The translations under genes were made by a program, and so were the position numbers. Of a stretch of DNA of 64,000 nt, positions 17,946 through 47,900 are shown one piece after another. This stretch comes from Vicugna vicugna (lineage: Eukaryota), in assembly GCA_013265495.1 (NCBI GenBank), contig MU057936.1:136016-200015 (forward strand). Direction: 5' to 3'. Each line of letters begins with the position of its first letter. The stretch's first letter is position 1. The notes below the pieces were generated by a model. That model searched no databases, had not been told where the DNA came from, and was given only the letters and a program-made list of their open reading frames with translations.

Positions 17946-20417
17946 CTAACCATCTTCGCATGTATCCTCTTCTTTGTTTGAAGTCATTTTTATTACTCTT
18001 TCTATAGGAGTCTTAACAGAATCATAGGTCCATCCCTTCCTGATAAACAACCTCTCAAGGATGTCTGGCATCTCGTACCCCTTGCTTAGAATGAAATCTT
18101 TAAAGGCAATTGTTCCATAAAGATCTTCAAGAATGTCCTTTTCAGGAAGCCTCCTTCCAAAACACCCACTTTGAGCTCCAAGTAAGCCCTTGGGGTCCAT
18201 CAAAGGTTCATCATTGATTAGCTTTTTCCACAACTTGGGCTTCAGATACCATGCGCCATACCTCATCTTCACCCAGTTGGGTTTATAAGGATTCTCTGGT
18301 TTCTGGAGTTTCCTCTCCCAGTTTCGCTCCTCGATTGAGAATTTTCTCTCCTCCATTTCAGTTAGCCCTATGCAGTATTTGACCTCTGAAGGAACCTTGG
18401 TTACTTTCTTGATGCAGCCTGTATCATAGGTTGGTGGGCACTCACATTCAACCTCACACTTTTTCATGATGAACTCTTCATCAATGCCCGAGTCTCCAAA
18501 AGTAGCAACCCATTTGCAGAATTCACGAATTCCTTTTGGTATTTTTCTAGAAGTACGAGGATCAGTGAGTGAATCCTTTCTCCTTGACTTCCTGTCCTTA
18601 CGATGCAAACTGGATCTATGTGACTCAGGAGCTTTCTCAAGAGGTTCCTGGTAGATGCTTGAGTTACTGTCCTCATGATGCAGACTGGCTGGATGTGACT
18701 CAGGAGGCTTTTCCAGAGGTTCCGGGTAGATGCTTGACTTCTTTTCTTCATCATGGAAACTGGATCGATGTGACTCTGGAGGCTTCTCGAGAGGTTCTGA
18801 GTGGATGCTTGACTTCTTGTCTTCATGATGGAGGCTGGATCGACGTGACTCTGGAGGCTTCTCGAGAGGTTCTAAGTGGATGCTTGACTTCTTGTCTTCA
18901 TGATGGAGACTGGATCGACGTGACTCTGGAGGCTTCTCAAGAGGTTCGAAGTGGATGCTTGACTTCCTGCCCTCATGATGGAAGCTGGATCGACGTGACT
19001 CCGGAGGCTTCTCAAGAGGTTCTAAGTGGATGCTTGACTTCCTGCCCTCATGATGGAAGCTGGATCGACGTGACTCAGGAGCCTTCTCGAGAGGTTCTGG
19101 GTAGCTGCTTGACTTCCTGCGCTCGTGATGCAAACTGGCTGGATGTGACTCAGGAGCCTTTTCGAGAGGTTCTAAGTGGATGCTTGACTTCCTGCCCTCA
19201 TGATGGAAGCTGGATCGACGTGACTCCGGAGGCTTCTCAAGAGGTTCTAAGTGGATGCTTGACTTCCTGCCCTCATGATGGAAGCTGGATCGACGTGACT
19301 CGGGAGGCTTCTCAAGAGGTTCTGGGTGGATGTTTGACTTGTCCTCATGATGCAAACTGGCTGGCTGTGACTCAGGAGCCTTCTCAGGAAGTTCCGGGTG
19401 GACATTTGACTTGTCTTCATGATGCAAACTGACTGGATGTGACTCAGGAGCCTTCTTGAAAAATTCCAGGTAGATGCGTGCTTTCTTGCGCTTGTGATGC
19501 AAACTGGCTGGCTGTGACTCAGGAGCCTTCTCGAGAAGTTCCGGGTGGATGTTTGACTTGTCCTCATGATGCATACTGGCTGGCTGTGACTCAGGAGCCT
19601 GCTCGAGAAGTTCCGGGTGGATGTTTGACTTGTCCTCATGATGCAAACTGGCTGGCTGTGACTCAGGAGCCTGCTCGAGAGGTTCTGGATAGATGCTTGA
19701 CTTCTCGCCCTCATGATGCAGACTGTCTGGATGTGAGTCATCAATCTTCTCGAGAAATTCCAGGAAGCTGCTTGACTTCCTTGCCTTATAATGCAAATTG
19801 GATGGATATGACTTGGGAGCCCTCTCGATAGGTTCCACGTAGACCTTGGCAGGACGTTTTTTACGAAGCTTTGTGGAGGACTTTGTTCTCTTCCTGGAGC
19901 CTTCACAATAAGCCCATGTATCCTTCAGCTTCCTGTCAGGATCGAGCACTTCCAGTACCTTTAATAAGAGGTCTGCAGGTAGATCTTCCTCCAGATTTGG
20001 GTAGAGAGCCAAGGGATGTTTGGTCAGGTGGGCTTCGATGTCCTCCACAAATGCCTTCCGTGCTGGCTGGGCTGGCGAGAGCGTGGAAGACAGGTTTGCT
20101 TTCTTGGGCAGCTTTCTCTGACCCTTTTTGGGGCCCAGCTGGGGAACTCTGTGAGCAATCACAGGGACAGAGCCCTCCTCAGGGCCACTAGTGAGCACAT
20201 CTTCACAAGGTGGGCAGCCCTTCCGGAAGTCGGCCAGCCCCTCTTTCACAAATACCCACCGCCGGCCGTCCAGGGAGGTGGGGAACTTCAGGAGCGCCTT
20301 CTTGTGCTTTGCAAAACACTTGGAAGGTAACTTGTCTTTGTACCAGGGCTTGCAGTTCATGCCCAGGGGCATTGGTTCCAGCGGCCCTGGTCCTAGCAGC
20401 CACTTCTTGTCCGCCAT
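17946..20417 (-). CDS. FAM47: FAM47-family protein, intronless, 823 aa, with a central His/Pro/Glu/Ser-rich tandem repeat
   Basis: Uninterrupted ORF; first ATG at 20417 in strong Kozak context (ggaaccATGG). FAM47 motifs: KPWYKDKLPSKCFAKHK, VFVKEGLADFRKGCP, LSPAQPARKAFVEDIEAHLTKHPLALYPNL, VKMRYGAWYLKPKLWKKL, LYGTIAFKDFILSKGYEMP, GWTYDSVKTPI. Paralogue (A/B/C/D/E-like) not resolved. Confidence 0.95.
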   Translation of the reverse strand: MADKKWLLGPGPLEPMPLGMNCKPWYKDKLPSKCFAKHKKALLKFPTSLDGRRWVFVKEGLADFRKGCPPCEDVLTSGPEEGSVPVIAHRVPQLGPKKGQRKLPKKANLSSTLSPAQPARKAFVEDIEAHLTKHPLALYPNLEEDLPADLLLKVLEVLDPDRKLKDTWAYCEGSRKRTKSSTKLRKKRPAKVYVEPIERAPKSYPSNLHYKARKSSSFLEFLEKIDDSHPDSLHHEGEKSSIYPEPLEQAPESQPASLHHEDKSNIHPELLEQAPESQPASMHHEDKSNIHPELLEKAPESQPASLHHKRKKARIYLEFFKKAPESHPVSLHHEDKSNVHPELPEKAPESQPASLHHEDKSNIHPEPLEKPPESRRSSFHHEGRKSSIHLEPLEKPPESRRSSFHHEGRKSSIHLEPLEKAPESHPASLHHERRKSSSYPEPLEKAPESRRSSFHHEGRKSSIHLEPLEKPPESRRSSFHHEGRKSSIHFEPLEKPPESRRSSLHHEDKKSSIHLEPLEKPPESRRSSLHHEDKKSSIHSEPLEKPPESHRSSFHDEEKKSSIYPEPLEKPPESHPASLHHEDSNSSIYQEPLEKAPESHRSSLHRKDRKSRRKDSLTDPRTSRKIPKGIREFCKWVATFGDSGIDEEFIMKKCEVECECPPTYDTGCIKKVTKVPSEVKYCIGLTEMEERKFSIEERNWERKLQKPENPYKPNWVKMRYGAWYLKPKLWKKLINDEPLMDPKGLLGAQSGCFGRRLPEKDILEDLYGTIAFKDFILSKGYEMPDILERLFIRKGWTYDSVKTPIERVIKMTSNKEEDTCEDG
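18567..19829 (-). repeat. Coding minisatellite: 17 units of 75 bp (13 units) or 72 bp (4 units)
   Basis: GGCTTCTCGAGAGGTT recurs at 18781 and 18856 (75-bp period); units such as LEKPPESRRSSFHHEGRKSSIHLEP (25 aa) and LEQAPESQPASLHHEDKSNIHPEL (24 aa). Confidence 0.95.
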
Positions 20418-20620
20418 GGTTCCGCTGGCCTCTCGGGGAACCACTAGCTTCTCAAGTTTGTTGTCCCCGCCTCTCCGGTTGCTAGGAGACGGGAAATCCA
20501 GGCGCAGGCAGGTTCTTCCCGGAAGCGGGTCACCGCAGGCGCCCCGCGAAGTCTGCGTTCTCCCGGGATGGGTGCTGAAGGCACATTCCTTTTTGTAGAT
20601 ACGTTCCGTCGCACGGACAG
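20418..20620 (-). promoter_or_regulatory. FAM47 proximal promoter/5'UTR with RFX X-box and ETS motif
   Basis: GTTGCTAGGAGAC at 20478-20490 (X-box); CCGGAAG at 20519-20525; CpG-rich; bounded upstream by L1. Confidence 0.6.
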
Positions 20621-22535
20621 ACTACCATTTATTTATCCATTCGCCTTTTGATGGGAATTTGAGTTGTTTACAGGTTGAAACTATTACCAGTAAAGCTGCC
20701 ACAAACGTTTGTGTTCACGTCTTTGTTTGTGCATTTATATACTTTGATTTCTCTTGAGTAAACTTCATCTGTGAGTGGAATGGCGGGTGCAGCTCATAGG
20801 TGTTTGTTTAACGCTTTAGGAAACCAGCAAACTTTTCCAAAGTGGTTGTACGAATTATTCCTTCTAGAAGTCTATGAGAATTGCACTTCTTCTGCATACT
20901 CCCCAACACTTGGTAGGGTTAGTCTAGGGTTAGTCATTTTCATTTTGGCTACTCTAATATGTGTGTAGGGGTATCTCTTTGTGGTTTTAAGTTGCATTTC
21001 CCTAAGGGCTACTGAACAGATGTGGAACATTTGTTCATGTGCTTATTTGCCATTCACAACCCTCCTTTGGTGAAGAGTCTGTTCAAACTTTCTGCACATT
21101 TTTAGACGAGAGTTCTTTGTGCTTTCCGAATGGAAGTCCTTTATCAGATATATGATTTGTACATTTTTTTCTCCACCTGTGGCTTGTCTTTTCATTGTCT
21201 TAACACTGCCTTCCAAAGGACAGTTTTTCCATTTGATGAAGTCCAATATATCACATTGTTCCTTTGTGAATTCTCTTTTTGTGTTGTAACTAAGAAAACT
21301 TTGCCTATCCAAAGGTCATGAAGACTTCTTTCATTCGACTAAAAGTTTAATAATCTTTTAAGTTTTACATTTAGATCTGTCATCTATTTCAACTTAAGTT
21401 TTAGGTGATAAAAGATATGAATCAAAGTTTTTAGTTTCTATTTTTCCTTTTCTGCCTGTGGATATCCAGTAGTTCCAGAATTTTTTTTTTTAAGAGGAGG
21501 TTTTCTCCACTGAATTACCTTCGTAACTTCGTAGGTATAAGTTGTCCCTATTTCCATGGGTGCAATTCTAGACACGCTTTTCTGTTCTGTTGACTCCTCT
21601 GTCTTTACAGCAATTCCACGTTGTGTTGATTACTTTGTATTTTACAATAAATCTTGAAATTAGGCTGTATTAGTCCTCCAGTTTCTTTATTCTTTTACAG
21701 AGTTGTTTTGACTCTTGTAGGTCCTTTGAATCCTTACAGGAGTTTAGAATCGGCTTGTCAGTGTGTACCAAGAAACCTGTGGGATTTTGATTTTGGTTCT
21801 GTGGAATCTATAAGTCGATTTTGAGCTAATCGACATCTTAACAATATTGAGTTTCCTGACCCGTGACAAAGGTTCATCTCACCGTTTATGTGTTATTTCA
21901 TTTATCTGAGCATTATTTTGTAGCTGTCACTGTATAGATCTTTCACATCTCTTTTTCTTTATATTTTCCCTAAATATTTCATGTTTTTGATACTATTGTG
22001 AATGGTATTGTGTTTTTTAATTGCCATGTTCATTGTTAGTATAGAGAAATAGAGTAGAGTTTTGTACGTCGACCTTGTGTAATGCAACTTTTGGATACTC
22101 ATTCATTCTAGTGCCCTTTTTATAGAGTCTGTCAAGTTTTCTATGTTGATAGTCATGTCATGTGTTACAAAGACAGTTTCACTTCTTCCCTTCCGGTCGG
22201 AGTAACTTTTTGCCCTGGCCTCATTGCACTGATTGGAACCTGCTTATGTTGACTCTAAATGATGAAAGTGGAAATTTGTGTCTTGTTTCTGATATTAGGA
22301 GAAAGTCATTAAGTATGATGCTAGCTTTAGATTTTTTTGACATACCCTTTTTCAGTCGTAAGTTCCTTTTTATTCCTGGTGTTCTGCGGCTTTCTGACAA
22401 TGCTGTGAGTCAGATCCTTGGATTGTGCCCAGTGCTTGGTCTGCATTCACTGAGATATTCATATAGTTTTCACTCTTTAGTTTGTTGAAGTAACAAATTA
22501 CATAAGTTGATTTCCAAGCAGTAAAGGTACTTTGC

Positions 22536-26459: not shown

Positions 26460-29130
26460 GGAATCTCCATACTGTTTTACAGAGTGGCTATCCAAATTTA
26501 CATTCCCACCAACAATGTACAAAGGTTCTGTTCTCTCCACATCTTAGACCATAGTTGTTATCTTTTGTCCTTTTGATACTAGCTATTCTTTTTTTTTATA
26601 TTGTTTATACAATTTTATTTTATTTTTTTAACATTTTTTATTGATTTATAATCATTTTACAATGTTATGTCAAATTCCAGTGTTCAGCGCAATTTTTCAG
26701 TCATTCAGTCATACACACTCATTGTCACATTTTTTTCTCTGTGAGTTATCATAACATTTTGTGTATATTTCCCTGTGCTATACAGTGTAATCTTGTTTAT
26801 CTATTCTACAATTTTGAAATCCCCGTCTATCCCTTCCCACCCTCCACCCCCCTGGCAACCACAAGTCTGTATTCTCTGTCTGTGAGTCTATTTCTGTCCT
26901 GTATTTATGCCTTGTTTTTGTTTGTNNNNNNNNNNNNNNNNNNNNNNNNNNNNNNNNNNNNNNNNNNNNNNNNNNNNNNNNNNNNNNNNNNNNNNNNNNN
27001 NNNNNNNNNNNNNNNNNNNNNNNNNNNNNNNNNNNNNNNNNNNNNNNNNNNNNNNNNNNNNNNNNNNNNNNNNNNNNNNNNNNNNNNNNNNNNNNNNNNN
27101 NNNNNNNNNNNNNNNNNNNNNNNNNNNNNNNNNNNNNNNNNNNNNNNNNNNNNNNNNNNNNNNNNNNNNNNNNNNNNNNNNNNNNNNNNNNNNNNNNNNN
27201 NNNNNNNNNNNNNNNNNNNNNNNNNNNNNNNNNNNNNNNNNNNNNNNNNNNNNNNNNNNNNNNNNNNNNNNNNNNNNNNNNNNNNNNNNNNNNNNNNNNN
27301 NNNNNNNNNNNNNNNNNNNNNNNNNNNNNNNNNNNNNNNNNNNNNNNNNNNNNNNNNNNNNNNNNNNNNNNNNNNNNNNTATGAGCTGCTTATATATTTT
27401 GGAGATCAAGCCTTTGTCGGTTTCACTTGCAAAAATTTTCTCCCATTCCGTAGGTTTTCTTCTTGTTTTATTTCTGGTTTCCTTTGCTGTGCAGAAGCTT
27501 GTAAGTTTCATTAGGTCCCATTTGTTTATTCTTGCTTTTATTTCTTCTAGGAGAAAATTTTTGAAATGTATGTCAGATAATGTTTTGCCTATGTTTTCCT
27601 CTAGGAGGTTTATTGTATCTTGTCTTATGTTTAAGTCTTTAATCCATTTTGAGTTGATTTTTGTATATGGTGTAAGGGAGTTTTCTAGCTTCATTGTTTT
27701 ACATGCTGCTGTCCAGTTTTCCCAACACCATTCGCTGAAGAGACTGTCTTTATTCCACTGTATCTTCTTGCCTCCTTTGTCGAAGACGAGTTGACCAAAA
27801 GTTTGTGGGTTCATTTCTGGGCTCTCTATTCTGTTCCATTGGTCTATATGTCTGTTTTGGTACCGATACTAGCTATTCTATATCATCGTGGTTTTGATTT
27901 GCATTTCCCTGATGATTAGTGAAGTTGATCACCTTTCATTCATTTTGGCTATTTCTATGTATTCTTTGTGGAAATTTTGGTCTTTTGCCTATTTTTTGAG
28001 GGTTTTTTGGAGGTGTTGAGTTGTATGAGTTATATATTTTGGGTTTTAAGCCTTATGAGATTAATAGTTTGAAAATATTTTCTCCAATTCCATGGGTTGC
28101 CTTCTCACTCTGTTGATTGTTCCCTTTGCTTTGCAGAAGCTTTTTCATTTAATGCGGTTTCACTTCTCTACCTTTGCTTTTTGTAGCCTGTGCTTTTGCT
28201 GACATATCCAAAAAATAATTGAAAATAATTGTCCAGGCCAACATTAAGAAGCTTTTTCCCTATGATTTTTTCTAGTAGTTTGACAGTTTCAAGTATAATG
28301 CTGAAGTCTTAATACATTTTGGTCTTTTATATGGTATGAGATAATTTGATTCTTCAGCATGTAGACATCCAGTTTTCCCAGCACCGTTTATTGAAGAGAG
28401 TATCTTTTCCCTGTTGAATGTTCTTGGCACCCTTGTCAAAGATCAATTGCCCATAAATGTATGGATTTATTTCTGGATTTCCTATTTTGTTCCTCTGGTC
28501 TATATGTCTGTTTTTATACCAATATCATACTATTTTGAGTACTGTACCCTTGCAGTGTATTTTGAAATCAGGAATTGTGATTCTTATTTCTCAGGATTCT
28601 TTTGGCTATTTGGGGTCTTAAATTTGTTAAGACTTGTTGTATGACCTCGTAGGTGAGCTATCCTGGAGAAGGCTGTATGTGCACTTGAGAAGAACATGTG
28701 TTCTACTCTTGGATAATAATTACTGTGTGTGTCTGTTCTATCAGTTTGGTCTATAGTGTTCTCGACTCAGCTGTTCCCTTCTTGATTTTCTGTCTGGATG
28801 TTCTATCCAGTATCATGAGTGGGATTTTGATGTCTCCTACTATTATTGTACTGCTGTCAATATCTGTCTTTAGATCTGTCGATATTTTTCCATCTTTATG
28901 TATGATTGACAAATAAAAATTTTATATATTGAAGGCATACACCATGAAGATCTGTCAATATATGCTTCATGTGCATAGGTGCTCTGAAGTTGGTTGTGTA
29001 TATATTTATAAATGTTATATCATCGTGGTGAATTGACCCTTTTATAATTATGCAATGTCCTTCTTTGTCTCCAGAGACACTTTTAGGCTTAAAGTCTGTT
29101 TTATCTGATACAAGTATAGTTACCCTTGCC
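26460..29130 (-). mobile_element. Older L1 fragment (host of a young nested L1; internal jump near 28620)
   Basis: ORF2 3' sequence resumes after the TSD at 27880; endonuclease-region sequence at 28620-29130. Confidence 0.82.
26590..27864 (-). mobile_element. Young 5'-truncated L1 with perfect 15-bp TSD (contains assembly gap 26926-27379)
   Basis: TSD GATACTAGCTATTCT at 26575-26589 and 27865-27879; poly(T); open ORF2 frame [33 protein letters not shown]...[17 protein letters not shown]. Confidence 0.95.
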
Positions 29131-37179: not shown

Positions 37180-38998
37180 CAAGGATGGTGTAGATGTCAA
37201 TCAGTATCTCAAATGTCCACTTTTCAGGAAAAACTATGAGATTTGCAAAGAGCTAAAACATTTTGACAAACACAAAGGAAATAAAGCAGTAAACAGAAAC
37301 TCCCTGAAAGGGCTTAGAAGACCTAGAAGACAACTGTGTCAAAGCAGCCTTTACAAGAACATGTTAGACAATTAAGGAAATCATATTTAAAGGTTAAAAT
37401 GAAAGTATGAATACAATAATCCATCACATAGAGGTTAAAAATGAAGGTGCAGACAATGTAAAAAGGAACAAACTTGACATTTTCAGGATACAGGAGTATA
37501 ATAGTTGAAATGAAAAAATTCACAAGTGTTCTCAGCAGATTTGAGCAATGAAAGAATCCAGGAAGCTGAAGGTGAATCAGCAGAGATTATGTCACCTTAG
37601 GCAAGGAGAAAGAAAAAATAGACCGAAAAATGAACATGAACTCAGAGACCAGTAGAACACCAAGCACACACACATATACATGATTGGAGTCCCAGAAGAC
37701 AAAGAGAGACACAAGGGCCGAAAAAGTATTTGAAGAAATAATGGATGAGATTTCCCCAAATCGGATGATAAGCATTACTCATCCAAGTTGATCAACCAAA
37801 TCCAATTAGGAAACATGCAGAGATCCACCCCTGGATACATGAGAGTTTAATTTCTGAAACACAGACAGTAAGAAAACATTGAAAACAGCAAGAAAAATGA
37901 CTCGAGACATAGAAGGGAACCACAACAAACTCGAAGCTGTCTTCTCCACAGAGACAAGGGAGGCCACACTGCAGTGGGATACTCATATTGCAGAATGGAA
38001 AACAAAAATGAAAAATGTGTCAGCAAGAATACTTGAGGGAACAAAATTGAGTGGAAGTAGCTACACTAACTTCAGGAAAATGATATATTTTAACACAAAA
38101 AGTACTACTAGATGCAAGAAGAAATATTTTACAATGATGAAAGATCTAAATCATCAGGAAGAGATAATGTTATAAATGAATATACACATAACAAAAGTGT
38201 CAAATGCACGAAACAAAAACTGTCATAGTTGAAAAATGAAATAGATAAGTCACAAATAATGGTTAGAGTCTTGTAGTCCCACTTTCCCTGGTGGATAGAA
38301 TAAGTAGGAAGAAAAGCAACAAAGAAGGGGAAGACTTCACGAAAACTGTGAACCAACCAGATCTATCAAAACTCTTATCGAGAAGAGTGCACCCATCAAC
38401 AGCTGAATGCTCCTTCTTCCCAAGCGCTCATGAAATATTCTNNNNNNNNNNNNNNNNNNNNNNNNNNNNNNNNNNNNNNNNNNNNNNNNNNNNNNNNNNN
38501 NNNNNNNNNNNNNNNNNNNNNNNNNNNNNNNNNNNNNNNNNNNNNNNNNNNNNNNNNNNNNNNNNNNNNNNNNNNNNNNNNNNNNNNNNNNNNNNNNNNN
38601 NNNNNNNNNNNNNNNNNNNNNNNNNNNNNNNNNAGAAGAGATCGGAAATTGCAACATAGTAAAAATTACGGAATACAGCAGATACGGTGGATAGAAAAAA
38701 ATACATAGCTGTAAATGCTTACGTTAAAGAAAGATGATGACAAATAATGTCACATTCCAATTTATAAACAATAAAAAGTTGAGAGCCAACTAAACCCTAA
38801 GGAAGCAGAAGTAAGGAAATAAAGATTAAAGCAGAAATAAAAGCAATAAAGGACAGAAAAACAGTAGAAAAAATGAACAAAATTCAAGGAGGTTCTTTAA
38901 AAACTCAAACAAAAACCTCTTCCCAGATTGATCAAGAAGGAATAAAAGGAGACAAAACAATAAAATTAGGAGTTCATAGAAGTAAAACGAATTATGAG
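37180..38998 (+). mobile_element. Old L1 fragment spanning ORF1 to the ORF2 endonuclease region (gap 38442-38633)
   Basis: A-rich sense L1: 'attggagtcccagaag...aaagtatttgaagaaataatggatgag'; remnant VHPSTAECSFFPSAHEIF. Confidence 0.8.
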
Positions 38999-39950
38999 NN
39001 NNNNNNNNNNNNNNNNNNNNNNNNNNNNNNNNNNNNNNNNNNNNNNNNNNNNNNNNNNNNNNNNNNNNNNNNNNNNNNNNNNNNNNNNNNNNNNNNNNNN
39101 NNNNNNNNNNNNNNNNNNNNNNNNNNNNNNNNNNNNNNNNNNNNNNNNNNNNNNNNNNNNNNNNNNNNNNNNNNNNNNNNNNNNNNNNNNNNNNNNNNNN
39201 NNNNNNNNNNNNNNNNNNNNNNNNNNNNNNNNNNNNNNNNNNNNNNNNNNNNNNNNNNNNNNNNNNNNNNNNNNNNNNNNNNNNNNNNNNNTTACGAATA
39301 TCAAAGATCTGGATTTGGGCTGTCGGCGCTAGTTTGACAACTCATGCTCTAGAACAAACCATCTGGTGGTAAAATAGAATCAATAAAAGCCTGTGTGTGC
39401 GTGTGTGTGTAGTGTATGNNNNNNNNNNNNNNNNNNNNNNNNNNNNNNNNNNNNNNNNNNNNNNNNNNNNNNNNNNNNNNNNNNNNNNNNNNNNNNNNNN
39501 NNNNNNNNNNNNNNNNNNNNNNNNNNNNNNNNNNNNNNNNNNNNNNNNNNNNNNNNNNNNNNNNNNNNNNNNNNNNNNNNNNNNNNNNNNNNNNNNNNNN
39601 NNNNNNNNNNNNNNNNNNNNNNNNNNNNNNNNNNNNNNNNNNNNNNNNNNNNNNNNNNNNNNNNNNNNNNNNNNNNNNNNNNNNNNNNNNNNNNNNNNNN
39701 NNNNNNNNNNNNNNNNNNNNNNNNNNNNNNNNNNNNNNNNNNNNNNNNNNNNNNNNNNNNNNNNNNNNNNNNNNNNNNNNNNNNNNNNNNNNNNNNNNNN
39801 NNNNNNNNNNNNNNNNNNNNNNNNNNNNNNNNNNNNNNNNNNNNNNNNNNNNNNNNNNNNNNNNNNNNNNNNNNNNNNNNNNNNNNNNNNNNNNNNNNNN
39901 NNNNNNNNNNNNNNNNNNNNNNNNNNNNNNNNNNNNNNNNNNNNNNNNNN
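38999..39950. other. Assembly gaps (38999-39291, 39419-39950; also 26926-27379 and 38442-38633)
   Basis: N runs. Confidence 0.99.
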
Positions 39951-40254
39951 AGAAGTATTTCAAGATGGAAAGTTGTCCCAGTAAATCTCAGTTCCAGGCA
40001 ACAGAGAAATCTTCCTTCCTTGAGTCCTGGCTGCACATGACAACCAAAGAAGCTACAGAGGACTTTTTGTTTCCTTCTCAGTATGCAAGGTGCCTGGGTT
40101 GGCTAAAATGGAAGACAGACGTCCAATGGCAAAGGATAGATATGCAATCTTTTCCCCAAAGCATTAACTACAAGAAGGAGCTTAGAAGAAACTGGAGGAT
40201 GATTATGAAGATGGCGATGTTGATGGTGGTGATGAAAACCAGAAACATGGCGAA

Positions 40255-40460
40255 CACGCAAGGTGCTGCCACTGTGCCAGGCACTCTCCTTAGAGATTTA
40301 CGTACATTAACTCCTTTAATCGGCACAGTGACCCAGTGGAGTTGACGCTTTTATTCTTATTTTAAATGTGAGGAAACTGAGGCACAGAGAAATTAAATAC
40401 CTTACCCAGGTCTACCCAAGATGTGTGGCTAGACTGGTATGTGAACCCAGGCAAACTGAG
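40255..40460 (-). mobile_element. MIR SINE
   Basis: 'ctgtgccaggcact...gaggaaactgaggcacagagaaattaaataccttacccaggtc...tgaacccaggc'. Confidence 0.8.
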
Positions 40461-41753
40461 GTTAAGAGAGTCAAACAGAAAACTGGTTCTCCAAAGCAGG
40501 AAAGGAAGAAGGATCGTCAGTCAATGGACTGTTTGAAATGCTCACCAGTATAGGCTTGCCCTGTGCGTCTTGTATCTGTGAGAGAGATGTGTATACACAC
40601 ACACACACACACATACATACTAGCCACCAGATTGCTTAAAGTATGTAGTAAAATACAAATAAGTTTAGCTAAGCAGTAATTTCCTTCCATATTTCCCCAA
40701 GACTACACTTCAACATTTTCTTAAAAGTGAGAATCATGGCCTTAGAGTTTAGTCTCCAGAAACTTCAATTGTCCTTTTACTCTTCTTTGCCAAACTTGGT
40801 GTTTGTTCAATACGTCGTTCTCTGCCTGCTTTGAGGACCTTTCCTCTCTCTGAGTTTGTCTCAGATCTTTCATTTATATATATATACATACATACATCTA
40901 TAGCCACCACAGGTGAAGCCACCATTGTGTCTCCGGACCTGCTCCAGTATCTCCTAACTTGTCTCCCAGCCTCGACTCTCCCTCTCCCCTGACATTCTTC
41001 AAAGCAATGAGAATCCTGGGTTTTACATTCAGGGAGATTTATTCTACTTTATATTCAATAGCACAAATTTGATCTTTGCCATGACCTTTAATTTTTCAGC
41101 CCTTCTGATGAGGTAGTTTGAGGTTTTTGTGGTATTCTTTTCGTTTAGTGGAAGAAAGGGTACAATGGAAGGAAAAATACACATCTTTGGATGTTTTGTA
41201 AGGGCAATATGCATAACTGGCAGGGTGACCCGGGAAGTCACTCCTGCATCTATGGGAACGTCAGCTAAGGCTCAGTTACCATTATCCCTGTTGGCAGGGG
41301 TGAGACTGTCAAGGAGGGACTCTGCATACCTGCTTCTAGGACCCCCAGGCTGCTGCCCAGAAGCAACATGTGCTAACATTTCTTAATGAGCTAAACGTTT
41401 TCAGGTCAAGTTGAAGACACCCTTTATTTTGCTGCCTGTCCAATGTCACTCTTCACTTCTCCTTAAGAGTTCACCAGTATTATAAATTCCATACTGTGTT
41501 TAAGTATAATATTACCACACACAGGTGTCACGTAGACTAGGACCGCAGATGACCCCTCCCCCACCCACTCACTCCTTGTTCATTAGGGGAATACTGCTTT
41601 TGTATTTTCCATGGTCCCAGGCAGTACCTTCTCCGTCCATCTGTGGAGACCCTGAGCTGCATGTGGATGGGGCATGGGTGCTGGAGAGACTCCTGGATAC
41701 CTGTTTTAAACTTACAAAGTGAGAGGTGTGCACACGTGAATCAACCAGAGACC

Positions 41754-41918
41754 TTTATTTATTTAAGAACCAATAACTTTATTGGAAGAAATGGTAACAA
41801 TGAAAGAAGAAAAACTTGAGTGAACTTTTTTTTTTTGCAAGGGCAGTATTGCCGTATGCATGCCAGGCAGGGAGGCCTCGGAAGTCACCCCGTGACCACG
41901 GGGAAGTGCAGTCCAGGC
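41754..41918 (-). terminator. 3'UTR of ferritin-like copy 2 with two AATAAA signals (41778-41783, 41754-41759)
   Basis: Retains blocks resembling the FTH1 3'UTR as recalled (GGGGTGACTTCC, GCATGCAT, TACCATTTCTTCCAATAAAG). Confidence 0.75.
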
Positions 41919-42533
<615 letters not shown>

Positions 42534-42792
42534 TCAAGAGTGTCCTCAGGGTGTGCTATGAGGGTGGCCGGAGGCAGGTGACTCCGGTCAGGGCAGAAGT
42601 TTTGGGATGGACCGGAATGTGGTTCCCTTACCAGGGTTTGGGAGGAGGAGGGCAGGTTCCAGTTCAGTTACACTGGCTGGGGTTGGGGCGGTAATGGGGA
42701 AAGGAGGGCGTAGCACAGAGCACTGTGTCCCAGGTTCCATCAGAGTCTGGGTGAGTCGCGGAGACTGTGAGCTGAGCAGCTGTCATCTATTA

Positions 42793-44079
42793 CATTTTAT
42801 TTTATTATTATTTTCATTTTATTATTTTCATTGTTATTGTTTTGGGTGCATCTCCACTGCCTGGCAGCTGGACTGGGACACTGTGGGAGACAGGGGAGGT
42901 ACTTTTTAAATTGTTTGTAGAGGCGGTCCCTGTCCTCCAGGAGCTTACAGTCTAGGTGGGAGACACAACTAATGCAAACTTACACAAGCATTAAAATTAG
43001 CGTTTAACATAACACTGACCACAATTGCTTAAGACCTGGGTAAAGCAAGATCAGTGAAGGGCTGGGGACTCAGAGAAGGTGTTTTGGTAAAGATGGAATT
43101 CATTTTCTTGTTGAATAGTTCCAAGTTGAGCGACACATTTGTTTTGGACAGGCGTGAGGGGGAAAGAGGAATGGAGGGAGCAGAGGCAGAAAGGCTGGAA
43201 GCCTATGTGGTAGGCAAGGGTCAGTGAGAAGGCCCCGCTCTGTTTCTTAAAACTCTTCCTTTGCAGTCGCCCTCAAGTCCCGACCCACTGGCTCGCAGTT
43301 GTCGCCTTGTTCGCCGCACTGAGATTCTGGGCTTTGGCTGGTGATGTTGGAATGTCCATTCTTGCTGGCTGGTGTGGTTGTCTGGATCTCTATGGTGGGG
43401 CCTGCTGGCATGGCCTTCACTGCGGGGCTGGGGTGGCACTGTCCCGACTTGGTCCAGATCAGAATGCATTGCCTGTGCCCAGATCTCAGGGGTCTGCTCC
43501 TCCCATTTCCCCCTCCTCCTTGAATGTCACCCGCAGTGGGACGGGTGCAAAGGGTAGGGAAGGGATCTGTATTGTCGTCATTGTTGGTTCTGCTTCTCCA
43601 GGGGCACTGATCTTGGCAACTGCTCCTCTGGCGAGAGAGCAGAGGGGACCACCGTTCCTGTGTAGCATTGGCTCCCATGCTGGTGGAATTTTACAGGAGC
43701 ACCTGGTGACATGGCCGCCCAGGGGTAGGGGCTGGAGCCTCAACTGGGGGCCCGGTGGTGGTGCTTTCCCAGCACTTGGCCCCCCGTTTCTCGACACAGT
43801 GTATGTCAGCTTCTTCAGGGAGCACCTGAACACCTCACTTCTCGCAATGGGCTATGTCCTTGGAGGATTTCAAAAAGCGAATCCTACCCAGTAAATGCAG
43901 CATTCCAGGAACACCTGCAGCAGCACACGGAAAACGTACCAGCCGATGATGAGCAGTTCCCGCCAAGGCTGCCGCCACTGCCGCCGTGGTTCCGAGAGTG
44001 GTGGGTGGATGGTTGAGAGCGAGGGCTGACGGTTCCGAGGGCCGCTGGTCTCTCAGAGTCCACTGTTGGGCCCGTTTGG
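42793..44079 (-). pseudogene. NNAT: Full-length processed pseudogene of neuronatin (alpha isoform); CDS remnant 43740-43987
   Basis: Reads (ACG)AAVAAALA[+1][55 protein letters not shown]..[+1]QVLGKHHHRAPS*, versus [85 protein letters not shown]. No introns, NNAT-like UTRs, decayed poly(A) at 42795-42843, TSD CATCTATTA at 42784-42792 and 44080-44088. Confidence 0.96.
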
Positions 44080-44919
44080 CATCTATTAATTTTCAGTTTT
44101 GCATTACTGTTCCTATTTTCCAAGGACTTTCTCTTATTCTCTAATTGCTCCCTTTTTTAGCACCCTGTTCTCATTTCATAAGCCCATCGTCTTCCTTAAA
44201 ATTCTGAGAATATAAATTTGGATTTTTTGGTGAAGTTCTCTTCTGTTTCCGGTATTATATTTATTTTTTTCTCCAGAAATAGTTCTGTTTGTTCATCATG
44301 ATCTTCTCTTCCACTTTCCTCAAATATCTGGCAAACATTTGTCCATTCATATTTGGGAGTAAAGGACTCATTTGATCAGCCTAGTTAATTAGAATGGATC
44401 TCATCTACAGTTGTGATGTCCATTTCATTAATAGGGGCCTCTTCTGTATGGGAGGGTAGCGTATGTCAGTTGTGGAGTGGTCTTCTCCTTTGGTAGTAAT
44501 CGCAGGAAACTTTCTGGTAGTATAGGGGCCCTCCCAGTTGCCAAAAGCATGGCATTTCTCAGACATCGGAAGACTTTGGTGGATCTCTCTTCTAGGCAGA
44601 TACGTCCTTCTGTCCTGTTTTGTTTCCGTTCTGTTATGCAGGTCTCCACTTGTCCCAGATCTGCTCTAATTTGGGTTCCTTTCTTGGTCACTGTCTTTGG
44701 AATGTAGTTTGGGGAGATTAAAGCAGATCAAATGCCACTGTGCTTTGTCGAGTGTAAGAAAGATTGGGATAGGGTCAGAGCACGGTAGCGGCAAACAGAA
44801 CTGTTGTTCAGAGAGTAGCTCTTCAATCTCACAGCCCACCCAGAACCTTCTGCAGTGCTTTGATTTCACTGACTCTCCTTGAGCTTTGAGAGTGCTTGGC
44901 TTTCTACTGCAGGTGCATT

Positions 44920-47900
44920 GTTTTATTTTTATTCATTAAAAAAAATTGAGGTATAGTTGATTTACAATGCTATGTTAGTTTCAGGTGTACAACATAATGA
45001 TTCAGTATTTTTATGGATTATACTGCATTTAAAGTTACCATAAAATATTGGCTCTATTCCCTGTGCTGTACAATACATCCTTATAGCTTATTTATTTTAT
45101 ACATGGTAGTTTGTACTTCTTAGTCCCCTATCCCTGTCTTGCCCCTACTCCTTTCCCTTTCCCCTTCCCTCTCCTTTTCCCTCTCTTTCCCTACTAGTGG
45201 AATCTGTTAACCACTAGTTTGTTCTCTAAATCTGTAAATCTGTCTCTGCTTTGCTATATTCATTCCTTTGTTTTATTTTTTAGATTCTACATATACGTGA
45301 TAAAATGCAATGTTTGTCTTTCTCTGTCTGACTTATTTCATGAAGCATGATTCCCTCCAAGTCCATCTGTGTTGTTGCAAATGGCAAAATTTCATTTTTT
45401 ATGGCTGAATAATATTCCACTGTGTGTTTGTCGCCTTTCTGCCATTCATCTGTTTTCTTTGACTATATTCCCAGAAGTGGAATTGCTTGATCATATGGTA
45501 GTTCTATTTTTTCATTTTTTGAGGAACCTCCATACTGTTTCCCATAGGGGCTGCACCAATTCACATTCCCAGCAACAGTGTACAAGGGTTCCCATTTCTC
45601 CATATCCTTGCCAATACTTGCTGTTTATGGTCGTTTTGATGACTGCCATTCTGACAGGTGTGAGATGATATCTCAAGTGTTTTTTTTAATTGAGGTATAG
45701 TCAATTTACTATGTTGTGTCAATTTCTGGTGTACAGCAGAATTCTTCAGTCATACATGAATATACATAAATTCATTTTCATATTCTTTTTCACTGTGAGC
45801 TCCTACAAGATATTGAATATATTTCCCTGTGCTATGCAGTATAAACTTGTTTATTTATTTTATATATACTAGTCAGTGTCTGCAAATCTTGAACGCCCAG
45901 TTTATCCCTTCCCACCCCTCTCCCCACTGGCAACTACAAGTTTGTATTCTATGTCCTCAAGTGGCTTTGATTTGTGTTTCTCTGATAATTAGTGATATTG
46001 AGCATCTTTTCACGTGCCTGTTGGCCATCTGTATGTCTTCTTTGGAAAAATGTCTAGTCAGGTCTTTTACCCAATCAGGTTTTTTTGTTTTTTTGATATT
46101 GAGTTGTATAAGCTGTTTACACATTTTGCATATTAACCCCTTATCATTTATATCATTTGAAAATGTTTTCTCTCATTCACTTGGTTATCTTTTTGTTTTG
46201 CTAATGGATTCCTTTGCTGTGCAAAAGCTTTTAGGTCCTCTCTCTTTTTTCTTGATCAGCATGGGTAAAGGCTTATCATTTTTGTTTACCTTTTTGAAAA
46301 AATAGCTCTTGGTTTCATCGATCTTTTCTGTTGTTTTTTGGCTCTCTCTTTTATTTCCTCTCTGAGATTTATTATTTCCTTCCTTCTGCTGACTTTGGGC
46401 TTATTTCTCTTTTTCTAATTCCTTCAGATAGTAGGTTAGGTTGCTTGTTTGATGTTTTTCTGGTTTCTTGAGGTAGGCCCATATTGCTACAGTTTCCTCT
46501 TAAAACTGCTTTTGTTGTTTCCCAGAGATTTTGGAAAATTGTGTTTCCATTATCATTTGTCTCAAGATATTTTCTGATGTCCTCTTTGATTTCTTCCTTG
46601 ATCCACTGGGTTTTTCATAGCATGGTTGTTCAGCTTCTATGTGTTTGTGTTTTTCCCATTTTTCTTCCTGTGATTGATTCCTAGTTTTGTACCTTTGTGG
46701 TTGGAAAAAATGCTTAATATAATCTCTATCCTCTTAAATTTGTCAAGACTTGTGTTGTGGCCTAGCACATATTCTATCCTGGAGACTGCTCATGTATACT
46801 TGAAAAGAATGTCTATTCTGCTGTTTTTGGATAGAATGTCTTGTAGATATCTATTAAGTTCAACTGGTCTAAGGTGTCATTTAAGACTACTGTTTCCTTA
46901 TTGATTTTCTGTCTGGGTGATCTGTCCATTGATATAAGTGGGGTGTTAATATTCCCCACTATTATTGTATTATTGTCAATTTCTCCCTTTTATAACTCAT
47001 AATATTTGCTTTATATATTTAGGTGCTTCTATATTAGGTACATATATGTTAACAAATGTTCTATCCTCTTCTTGTATTGATCCCTTTATCATTATATAAT
47101 GCCTTTTTTTGTCTTTTGTTACAGATGTTGTCTTAAAGTCTATTTTGTCTGATAAGAGTATTGCTACGTTTGCTTTCTTGTCGTTTTCATTTACACATAC
47201 TCTCACTTTAAGCCTGTGTTTTTCTTTAGCTCTGAATTGAGTCTCTTGTGGCCAGCATATAGATGGTCTTGTTTTTCTTTTATCCAATCATTCAGCCTTT
47301 TTCTTTTGATTGGAGCATTAAGTCCATTGACATTTAAAGTGGTTATTGATAGGTATGTAGTTAATATCATTTTATTGTTTTCTGGTTGTTTTAGTAGTTA
47401 TCTTCAGTTATTTTCTTGTTTTTCCCTCTTATGGTTGGATGGTTTTCTTTAGTGGTATGTTTGTGTTCCTTTCTCTCTAATTTTTGTGCATCTATTGTAG
47501 CTTTTTCATTTGTGGTTTTCAGATTGAGATATGTTGACATAACTATATCCACTTGTCTTAAATTGGTAGTCATTTAAATTCAAACACATTCTAAAGATCT
47601 ACATTTTATACTCCCCTCCACCACATTTTGTGTTTTTGATGTCATATTTCACATCTTCATGTTTATACTTTAACTGTTATTATATTTATAGTTGATTTTA
47701 CAATTTTTTGTCCTTTAATCTTTGTACTAGCTTAATTAAGTGGCTAATCCACAGTCTGTATATATTTGCTTTTACCATGTATTTACCTTTACTAGTGGGA
47801 TTTTACTTCTTACAAATTCTTACTTCTTGTTGTAGCCTCTTCTTTTCCACTTAGAGAAGACTCTTTAACATTTCTTTCAGGGTTGATCTAGTATTGATGA

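Follow-up and report, generated by a model that had tools for sequence, protein, structure and literature searches.

A decayed NNAT-alpha processed pseudogene upstream of a ferritin heavy-chain-like gene in a camelid genome

How a sequence with the makeup of a neuronatin (NNAT) messenger RNA came to lie just upstream of a ferritin heavy-chain-like gene, and whether it does anything there, is the question raised by a locus on contig C1095 of the vicuña genome. The locus was analysed within a stretch of 64,000 nt (hereafter the window; positions refer to this stretch unless a contig is named). An earlier note, made from the letters of the same stretch, had read 42784..44088 as a complete copy of NNAT mRNA, and its coordinates and strand are reproduced here. 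It is almost certain that 44088..42784 on the minus strand is a dead processed pseudogene of a spliced, polyadenylated NNAT-alpha mRNA, which reached its place upstream of the ferritin-like gene by a LINE-1-type insertion (Table 1). The retrocopy is thereby one further case of a very common class, the L1-type processed pseudogene.

Table 1. Coordinates of the retrocopy, its parent, its second copy and the ferritin-like family (window positions unless a contig is given).
Feature	Position	Strand	Remarks
5' target-site duplication copy	44080..44088	-	TAATAGATG; possibly 12 nt (TAATAGATGCCA), compare empty paralogue
8-nt joint CCAAACGG	44072..44079	-	no match to parent upstream sequence; first 3 nt may be target site
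5'UTR of copied mRNA, 84 nt	43988..44071	-	76/84 identical to parent
Disabled coding region, 246 nt plus 2 inserted bases	43740..43987	-	227/246 identical to parent
3'UTR of copied mRNA	42840..43739	-	791/888 identical to parent, 11 gap events
Decayed poly(A) tail, 47 nt	42793..42839	-	32 A (68%); begins where parent homology stops
3' target-site duplication copy	42784..42792	-	TAATAGATG; exact 9-nt repeat
Intronless ferritin heavy-chain-like frame, 183 codons open	41919..42470	-	Pfam Ferritin, E 3.5e-22
Inverted second copy of filled locus	C1095:427981-430775		L003, L006, L017, L028, L033; very contig end, two N runs
Ferritin-like paralogues on C1095	114191-114921, 134565-134872, 234487-235231, 301168-302134
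Ferritin-like paralogues elsewhere	C11837:275-1051; C11982:501382-502140 and 3359939-3360715
Parent NNAT	C3841:4854734-4857077		exons 156, 81, 1000 nt; introns 914, 193 nt, both GT..AG

Compared with the three-exon NNAT gene of the same genome, the retrocopy is full length and free of introns. Its 1232 aligned bases are collinear over their whole length with three blocks that lie apart on contig C3841, and the exon joints at 43915|43914 and 43834|43833 are exact, both parent introns having been removed. The earlier note had named the lack of such a collinear, intron-free alignment to NNAT as what would speak against it; the alignment was obtained. Because the retrocopy contains the 81-nt middle exon (27 codons, specific to alpha; 82 of 85 positions identical in the exon-2 alignment), the template was the NNAT-alpha form, which has 81 residues as against 54 for NNAT-beta (PMC7566048). 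The spliced coding sequence with its alpha-specific segment, the 3'UTR of about 0.9 kb and the decayed poly(A) tract were likewise correctly described in the earlier note. At the other end, the 5'UTR of the retrocopy starts about 30 nt downstream of the parent's TATA-like ATACTTAAGA, and upstream of the first matched base there is no likeness to the parent's upstream sequence, so that a parental promoter was not found there.

At the protein level, a 59-aa read-through of the main frame, with X at both stops, matches all 12 candidate proteins, nine of which are named neuronatin or neuronatin-like while three are unnamed. The best match is an 81-aa protein (E 3.3e-27, 86% identity). A Pfam search with the read-through peptide and one neuronatin protein returned no family, using a set that did not include PF27808, which is a precomputed tag of the protein collection.

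The parent itself is identified by several features. The joined blocks on C3841 give an intact 81-codon frame, the product of which equals the neuronatin-named protein P0007 except for a 7-aa insert in the latter, and a six-frame genome-wide search with P0007 returned four places only, namely the window copy and the three parent exons. Furthermore, the sole match to BC10 (BLCAP) in this genome lies 2 kb upstream of the parent on the opposite strand, and proximity to BLCAP is the expected setting of an NNAT gene. The 3' end of the retrocopy was placed from homology to the parent genomic sequence. The end of the parent's only canonical AATAAA is 66 nt short of the last base that parent and retrocopy have in common (L002 2431-2502), a long distance for a poly(A) signal, and no other common signal hexamer is found between this AATAAA and the tail point. 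The poly(A) site of the template mRNA would therefore have been non-canonical or unusually far from its signal.

As a protein gene, the retrocopy does nothing. The open reading frame expected of a functional retrogene has not been kept: T>C at 43986 turns the start codon from ATG into ACG (43985-43987, minus strand), two one-base insertions (an extra G near 43961 and an extra base near 43779) each shift the frame by +1, and C>T changes at 43872 and 43854 create stops at 43870-43872 (CGA>TGA) and 43852-43854 (CAG>TAG). Three minus-strand frames are thus needed to read the copy, the first of 10 letters, the second of 57 letters and the third being GQVLGKHHHRAPS with its terminal stop, in keeping with the two shifts and two stops. 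All of these disabling changes had been listed in the earlier note and are recovered by translation and by alignment to the parent. In the coding region, 19 of 246 positions are substituted and the residue is changed in 16 of 81 codons, with only one changed codon being purely synonymous. Over the spliced exons as a whole, 1094 of 1218 positions are identical (89.8%; Kimura distance 0.110), and changed sites make up 24 of the 101 parent CpG positions as compared with 100 of the 1117 positions elsewhere. This pattern of substitution indicates a retrocopy in free decay, with a methylation-type bias and no constraint.

The flanks of the retrocopy bear on how it arrived. The motif TAATAGATG, which reads CATCTATTA on the plus strand, is present at 44088..44080 and again at 42792..42784. 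Shuffling the two A/T-rich junction windows 200000 times gave a common 9-mer on 4352 occasions, and the 9-nt repeat taken alone is weak evidence of insertion; it is the paralogous empty sites that make the target-site duplication solid. Four ferritin-like paralogue loci (L009, L010, L013 and L012), which are paralogous and not orthologous sites, carry no insert. In L009 (C1095, near 302,140), both flanks of the window copy are contiguous over a single intact TAATAGATG, so that the target-site duplication proposed in the earlier note is borne out. In the remaining three loci the insert is absent and the site motif has diverged. The empty site reads ...TAATAGATGCCAGCTG; in L009 the motif runs on as CCA, the same as in the 5' copy of the window. 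The target-site duplication may hence once have spanned 12 nt, one change having followed, and the number of unexplained bases at the 5' joint would then fall from 8 to 5.

Target-primed reverse transcription of the LINE-1 type typically leaves such traces, a full-length mRNA copy that ends in a tail and is flanked by a target-site duplication, and the LINE-1 endonuclease has a TTTT/AA-like nick consensus. Here, extending the repeat into the A-run with an indel, to AAAAT(G)TAATAGATG, gives a nick site of TTTT/CA; the strict 9-nt repeat does not fit. Nothing contradicts the reading as a retrocopy, and the loose details are the 66-nt distance to AATAAA, the 8-nt 5' joint, the nick motif and the word shares in RNA runs discussed below. 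By far the most probable course of events begins with the reverse transcription of a spliced, polyadenylated NNAT-alpha mRNA comprising all three exons, from about the start site to the poly(A). LINE-1-type target-primed reverse transcription put this copy upstream of one member of an FTHL17-type ferritin heavy-chain-like cluster, where, having landed without parent promoter or introns, it has decayed freely. LINE-1 as the source of the enzyme is likely from the form of the insertion, and a germline or early-embryo setting is likely from the way in which heritable L1-made copies come about.

The upstream flank was considered as an old L1 ORF1 fragment, a candidate that was rejected since three frames of 44089-44700 have no Pfam match. 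Within this flank, high-copy repeat is confined to the far end (45100-44943), where a repeat of about 158 nt, probably a SINE, has thousands of genomic copies (4616 first-look candidates, 82-90% identity).

The filled site exists twice. The last 864 bases of C1095 (429912-430775) hold a second copy in opposite orientation, about 250 kb away, which matches the 3' 700 nt of the retrocopy, its tail, TAATAGATG and 129 nt of the downstream flank, while pieces of the upstream flank precede it in the right order between two N runs. Homology between the two loci begins at window 45539, and the duplicated unit is thus at least 2.9 kb. In a three-way comparison over 645 ungapped columns, the two copies agree against the parent at 67 sites, as opposed to 12 sites private to the window copy and 13 private to the second. 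This pattern, together with the common repeat and both flanks, argues for one retrotransposition followed by segmental duplication, in which a filled-site segment of at least 2.9 kb was placed in inverted orientation at the distant site. Divergence between the copies is uneven, with 3 differences in the first 420 columns and 22 in the next 233 (about 9.6%), which suggests gene conversion between the inverted duplicates or an assembly effect beside the gap. The A-rich tract of the second copy is longer than the tail of the window copy. As a continuation of the second copy, C11837 was rejected, its first 250 nt differing from the promoter-proximal flank of the window and matching paralogue L012.

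The age of the insertion can be estimated from these distances. With mammalian neutral change taken as about 2.2e-9 per site per year, a distance of 0.11 would correspond to about 25 My where parent and copy have both drifted and to about 50 My where the copy has taken up nearly all of the change; a slower neutral rate would make the retrocopy older. On this divergence, the insertion would fall on the camelid stem. Since all but 2 of the 81 residues of the parent protein are the same in a lemur neuronatin, the coding changes lie mostly on the branch of the copy, and these changes alone would date the retrocopy to about 37 My. Judged from the unconverted segment, the age of the duplication would be about two thirds that of the insertion.

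The ferritin-like neighbour is oriented like the retrocopy and lies 314 nt downstream of the insertion. The earlier note had placed the insertion at the edge of a ferritin-like promoter; the adjacency holds, the insertion lying 314 nt upstream of the site where the paralogues have their ATG, and a promoter edge is plausible from this position. While its reading of the locus also stands, the earlier note had overlooked both the second copy at the contig end and the state of the ferritin-like start codon. In fact, the window frame has AAG at 42468-42470 (minus strand) where five paralogues have ATG, and there is no start codon before Met-38. Because of this loss, the neighbour is probably a young pseudogene, although it may alternatively use a downstream Met. 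The best database matches of the frame are camelid ferritin heavy chain or heavy chain-like proteins (92% and 87% identity), and identity to proteins bearing the FTHL17 name goes up to 67%. A tree built on 32 rows places the frame among camelid sequences only, in a clade of 7 rows (support 100/99) nested in a wider 'heavy chain-like' clade of 14 cetartiodactyl rows (100/99), and outside that of FTH1 and mitochondrial ferritin. The genome contains at least nine further matches to this family, six of them on the same contig as the window. The intronless paralogues show 85-95% DNA identity to the window copy; in several of them the frame is fully open, and the copy in L012 has an in-frame stop near its end.

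Elsewhere in the window, an 891-codon open frame of the FAM47 family (PF14642, E 7e-52) is found at 17949-20621 on the minus strand. FAM47 and FTHL17 genes are X-linked neighbours in human, and by this analogy the locus is probably an X-linked neighbourhood of testis-type genes. Assembly gaps are present as N runs at 26926-27379, 38442-38633, 38999-39291 and 39419-39950, and give spurious long frames in lists of open reading frames around 26.6-27.9 kb and 38.8-40.3 kb.

The likeness to NNAT might also be thought to reflect a duplication of the gene at the DNA level with later loss of the introns, a cDNA contaminant or an artefact of the assembly. A bare similarity to NNAT would be expected from any of these, and nothing further speaks for them; exact excision of both introns, a poly(A) remnant, a flanking repeat and the want of parent promoter sequence upstream of the copy do not fit a DNA-level duplicate, and a divergence of 10% from the parent does not fit fresh cDNA. 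The four empty paralogue loci add to this, as does the second copy, which has diverged but keeps the flanks. Furthermore, 14 DNA or probably-DNA sequencing runs from 5 studies under two organism labels, one run perhaps being the source sample of the assembly, contain 0.86-0.94 of the sampled words of the retrocopy, which is therefore real genomic sequence. On these combined grounds (intron loss, tail, repeat, empty sites, DNA runs and second copy), an origin as DNA-level duplicate, contaminant or assembly artefact is ruled out for practical purposes, its probability being negligible.

A dead processed pseudogene could still be transcribed, and it is conceivable, if rather unlikely, that the retrocopy or its duplicate is expressed in reproductive tissue, as an upstream exon or a non-coding RNA driven by or reading into the testis-type ferritin-like gene, with a regulatory effect. 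Two RNA-seq runs of one study with a reproductive system label (X15 and X16) contain 0.32 and 0.30 of the retrocopy words, and two doubtful RNA runs (X17 and X18) contain 0.25 and 0.20. Only 39 of the 1275 31-mers of the retrocopy (3.1%) also occur in the parent locus, as compared with 379 of 1275 in the second copy, and these RNA libraries therefore contain something other than NNAT mRNA. Transcription of this kind would also be in line with the shared orientation of the retrocopy and the ferritin-like frame 314 nt away, and with mouse Fthl17 genes being expressed in testis and early embryo according to PMC5312872 and PMC2887969. On the other hand, these shares are counts of words without place, strand or origin on the sequence and are by themselves no evidence of expression or tissue, and genomic DNA can occur in RNA libraries. 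The value of 0.30 also equals the fraction of words common with the duplicate, so that the signal may be that of the other copy; the shares may thus reflect a transcript of the window copy, a transcript of the second copy or carried-over DNA. Moreover, the retrocopy has no open frame, an Rfam scan of 40000-47000 found no family, and the adjacent ferritin-like copy lacks its ATG. Less probable again, and at best a speculative prospect, is that the NNAT-derived sequence forms part of a ferritin-like (FTHL17-type) transcript in reproductive tissue, the insertion having altered the promoter and contributed to the loss of the start codon. If this were true, a piece of an imprinted autosomal gene would have joined the upstream region of a family which is expressed in germline and early embryo and is probably X-linked.

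As a dead processed pseudogene, the retrocopy is of modest consequence. Heritable L1-made copies arise in the germline or early embryo, and on this general ground it would follow from the retrocopy that cells contributing to the germline at one time contained spliced NNAT-alpha mRNA. It adds one more dated marker of LINE-1 activity, which matters little. In camelid-type genomes it can be scored as a presence/absence character, and with four paralogues empty and two sites filled it can help to order the duplications within the ferritin-like cluster. For expression work, reads of the retrocopy are easily told from those of real NNAT given the small share of common 31-mers, and the earlier concern that it could confound allele-specific assays of NNAT is accordingly a small one. 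The paralogous empty sites, the later duplication and the likewise disabled neighbour are tidy extras of an ordinary pseudogene. Among the literature matches listed, none is about an NNAT retrocopy or pseudogene, judged by title and abstract opening, and an annotation record of it may exist.

In its makeup, the window copy resembles the LINE-1-mediated processed pseudogenes of mammals, which were reportedly described by Esnault, Maestre and Heidmann in 2000: it is full length and intron-free with a poly(A) tract, a short target-site duplication and no parental promoter, it decays freely, and its intron-bearing parent gene lies elsewhere. There is no difference in kind from this class, the particulars being an imprinted parent, a ferritin-like target and a later duplication. 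Compared with the parent NNAT at the BLCAP locus, the retrocopy is without introns, promoter, CpG-island context and start codon, carries two frameshifts and two stops, and has FAM47 and ferritin-like genes as its neighbours on a different contig. Imprinted genes that arose by retrotransposition, such as FAM50B, likewise link retrotransposition with imprinting; as described in PMC3141237, these are functional retrogenes imprinted at their new site, whereas the window copy is dead and its parent is imprinted at the old site.
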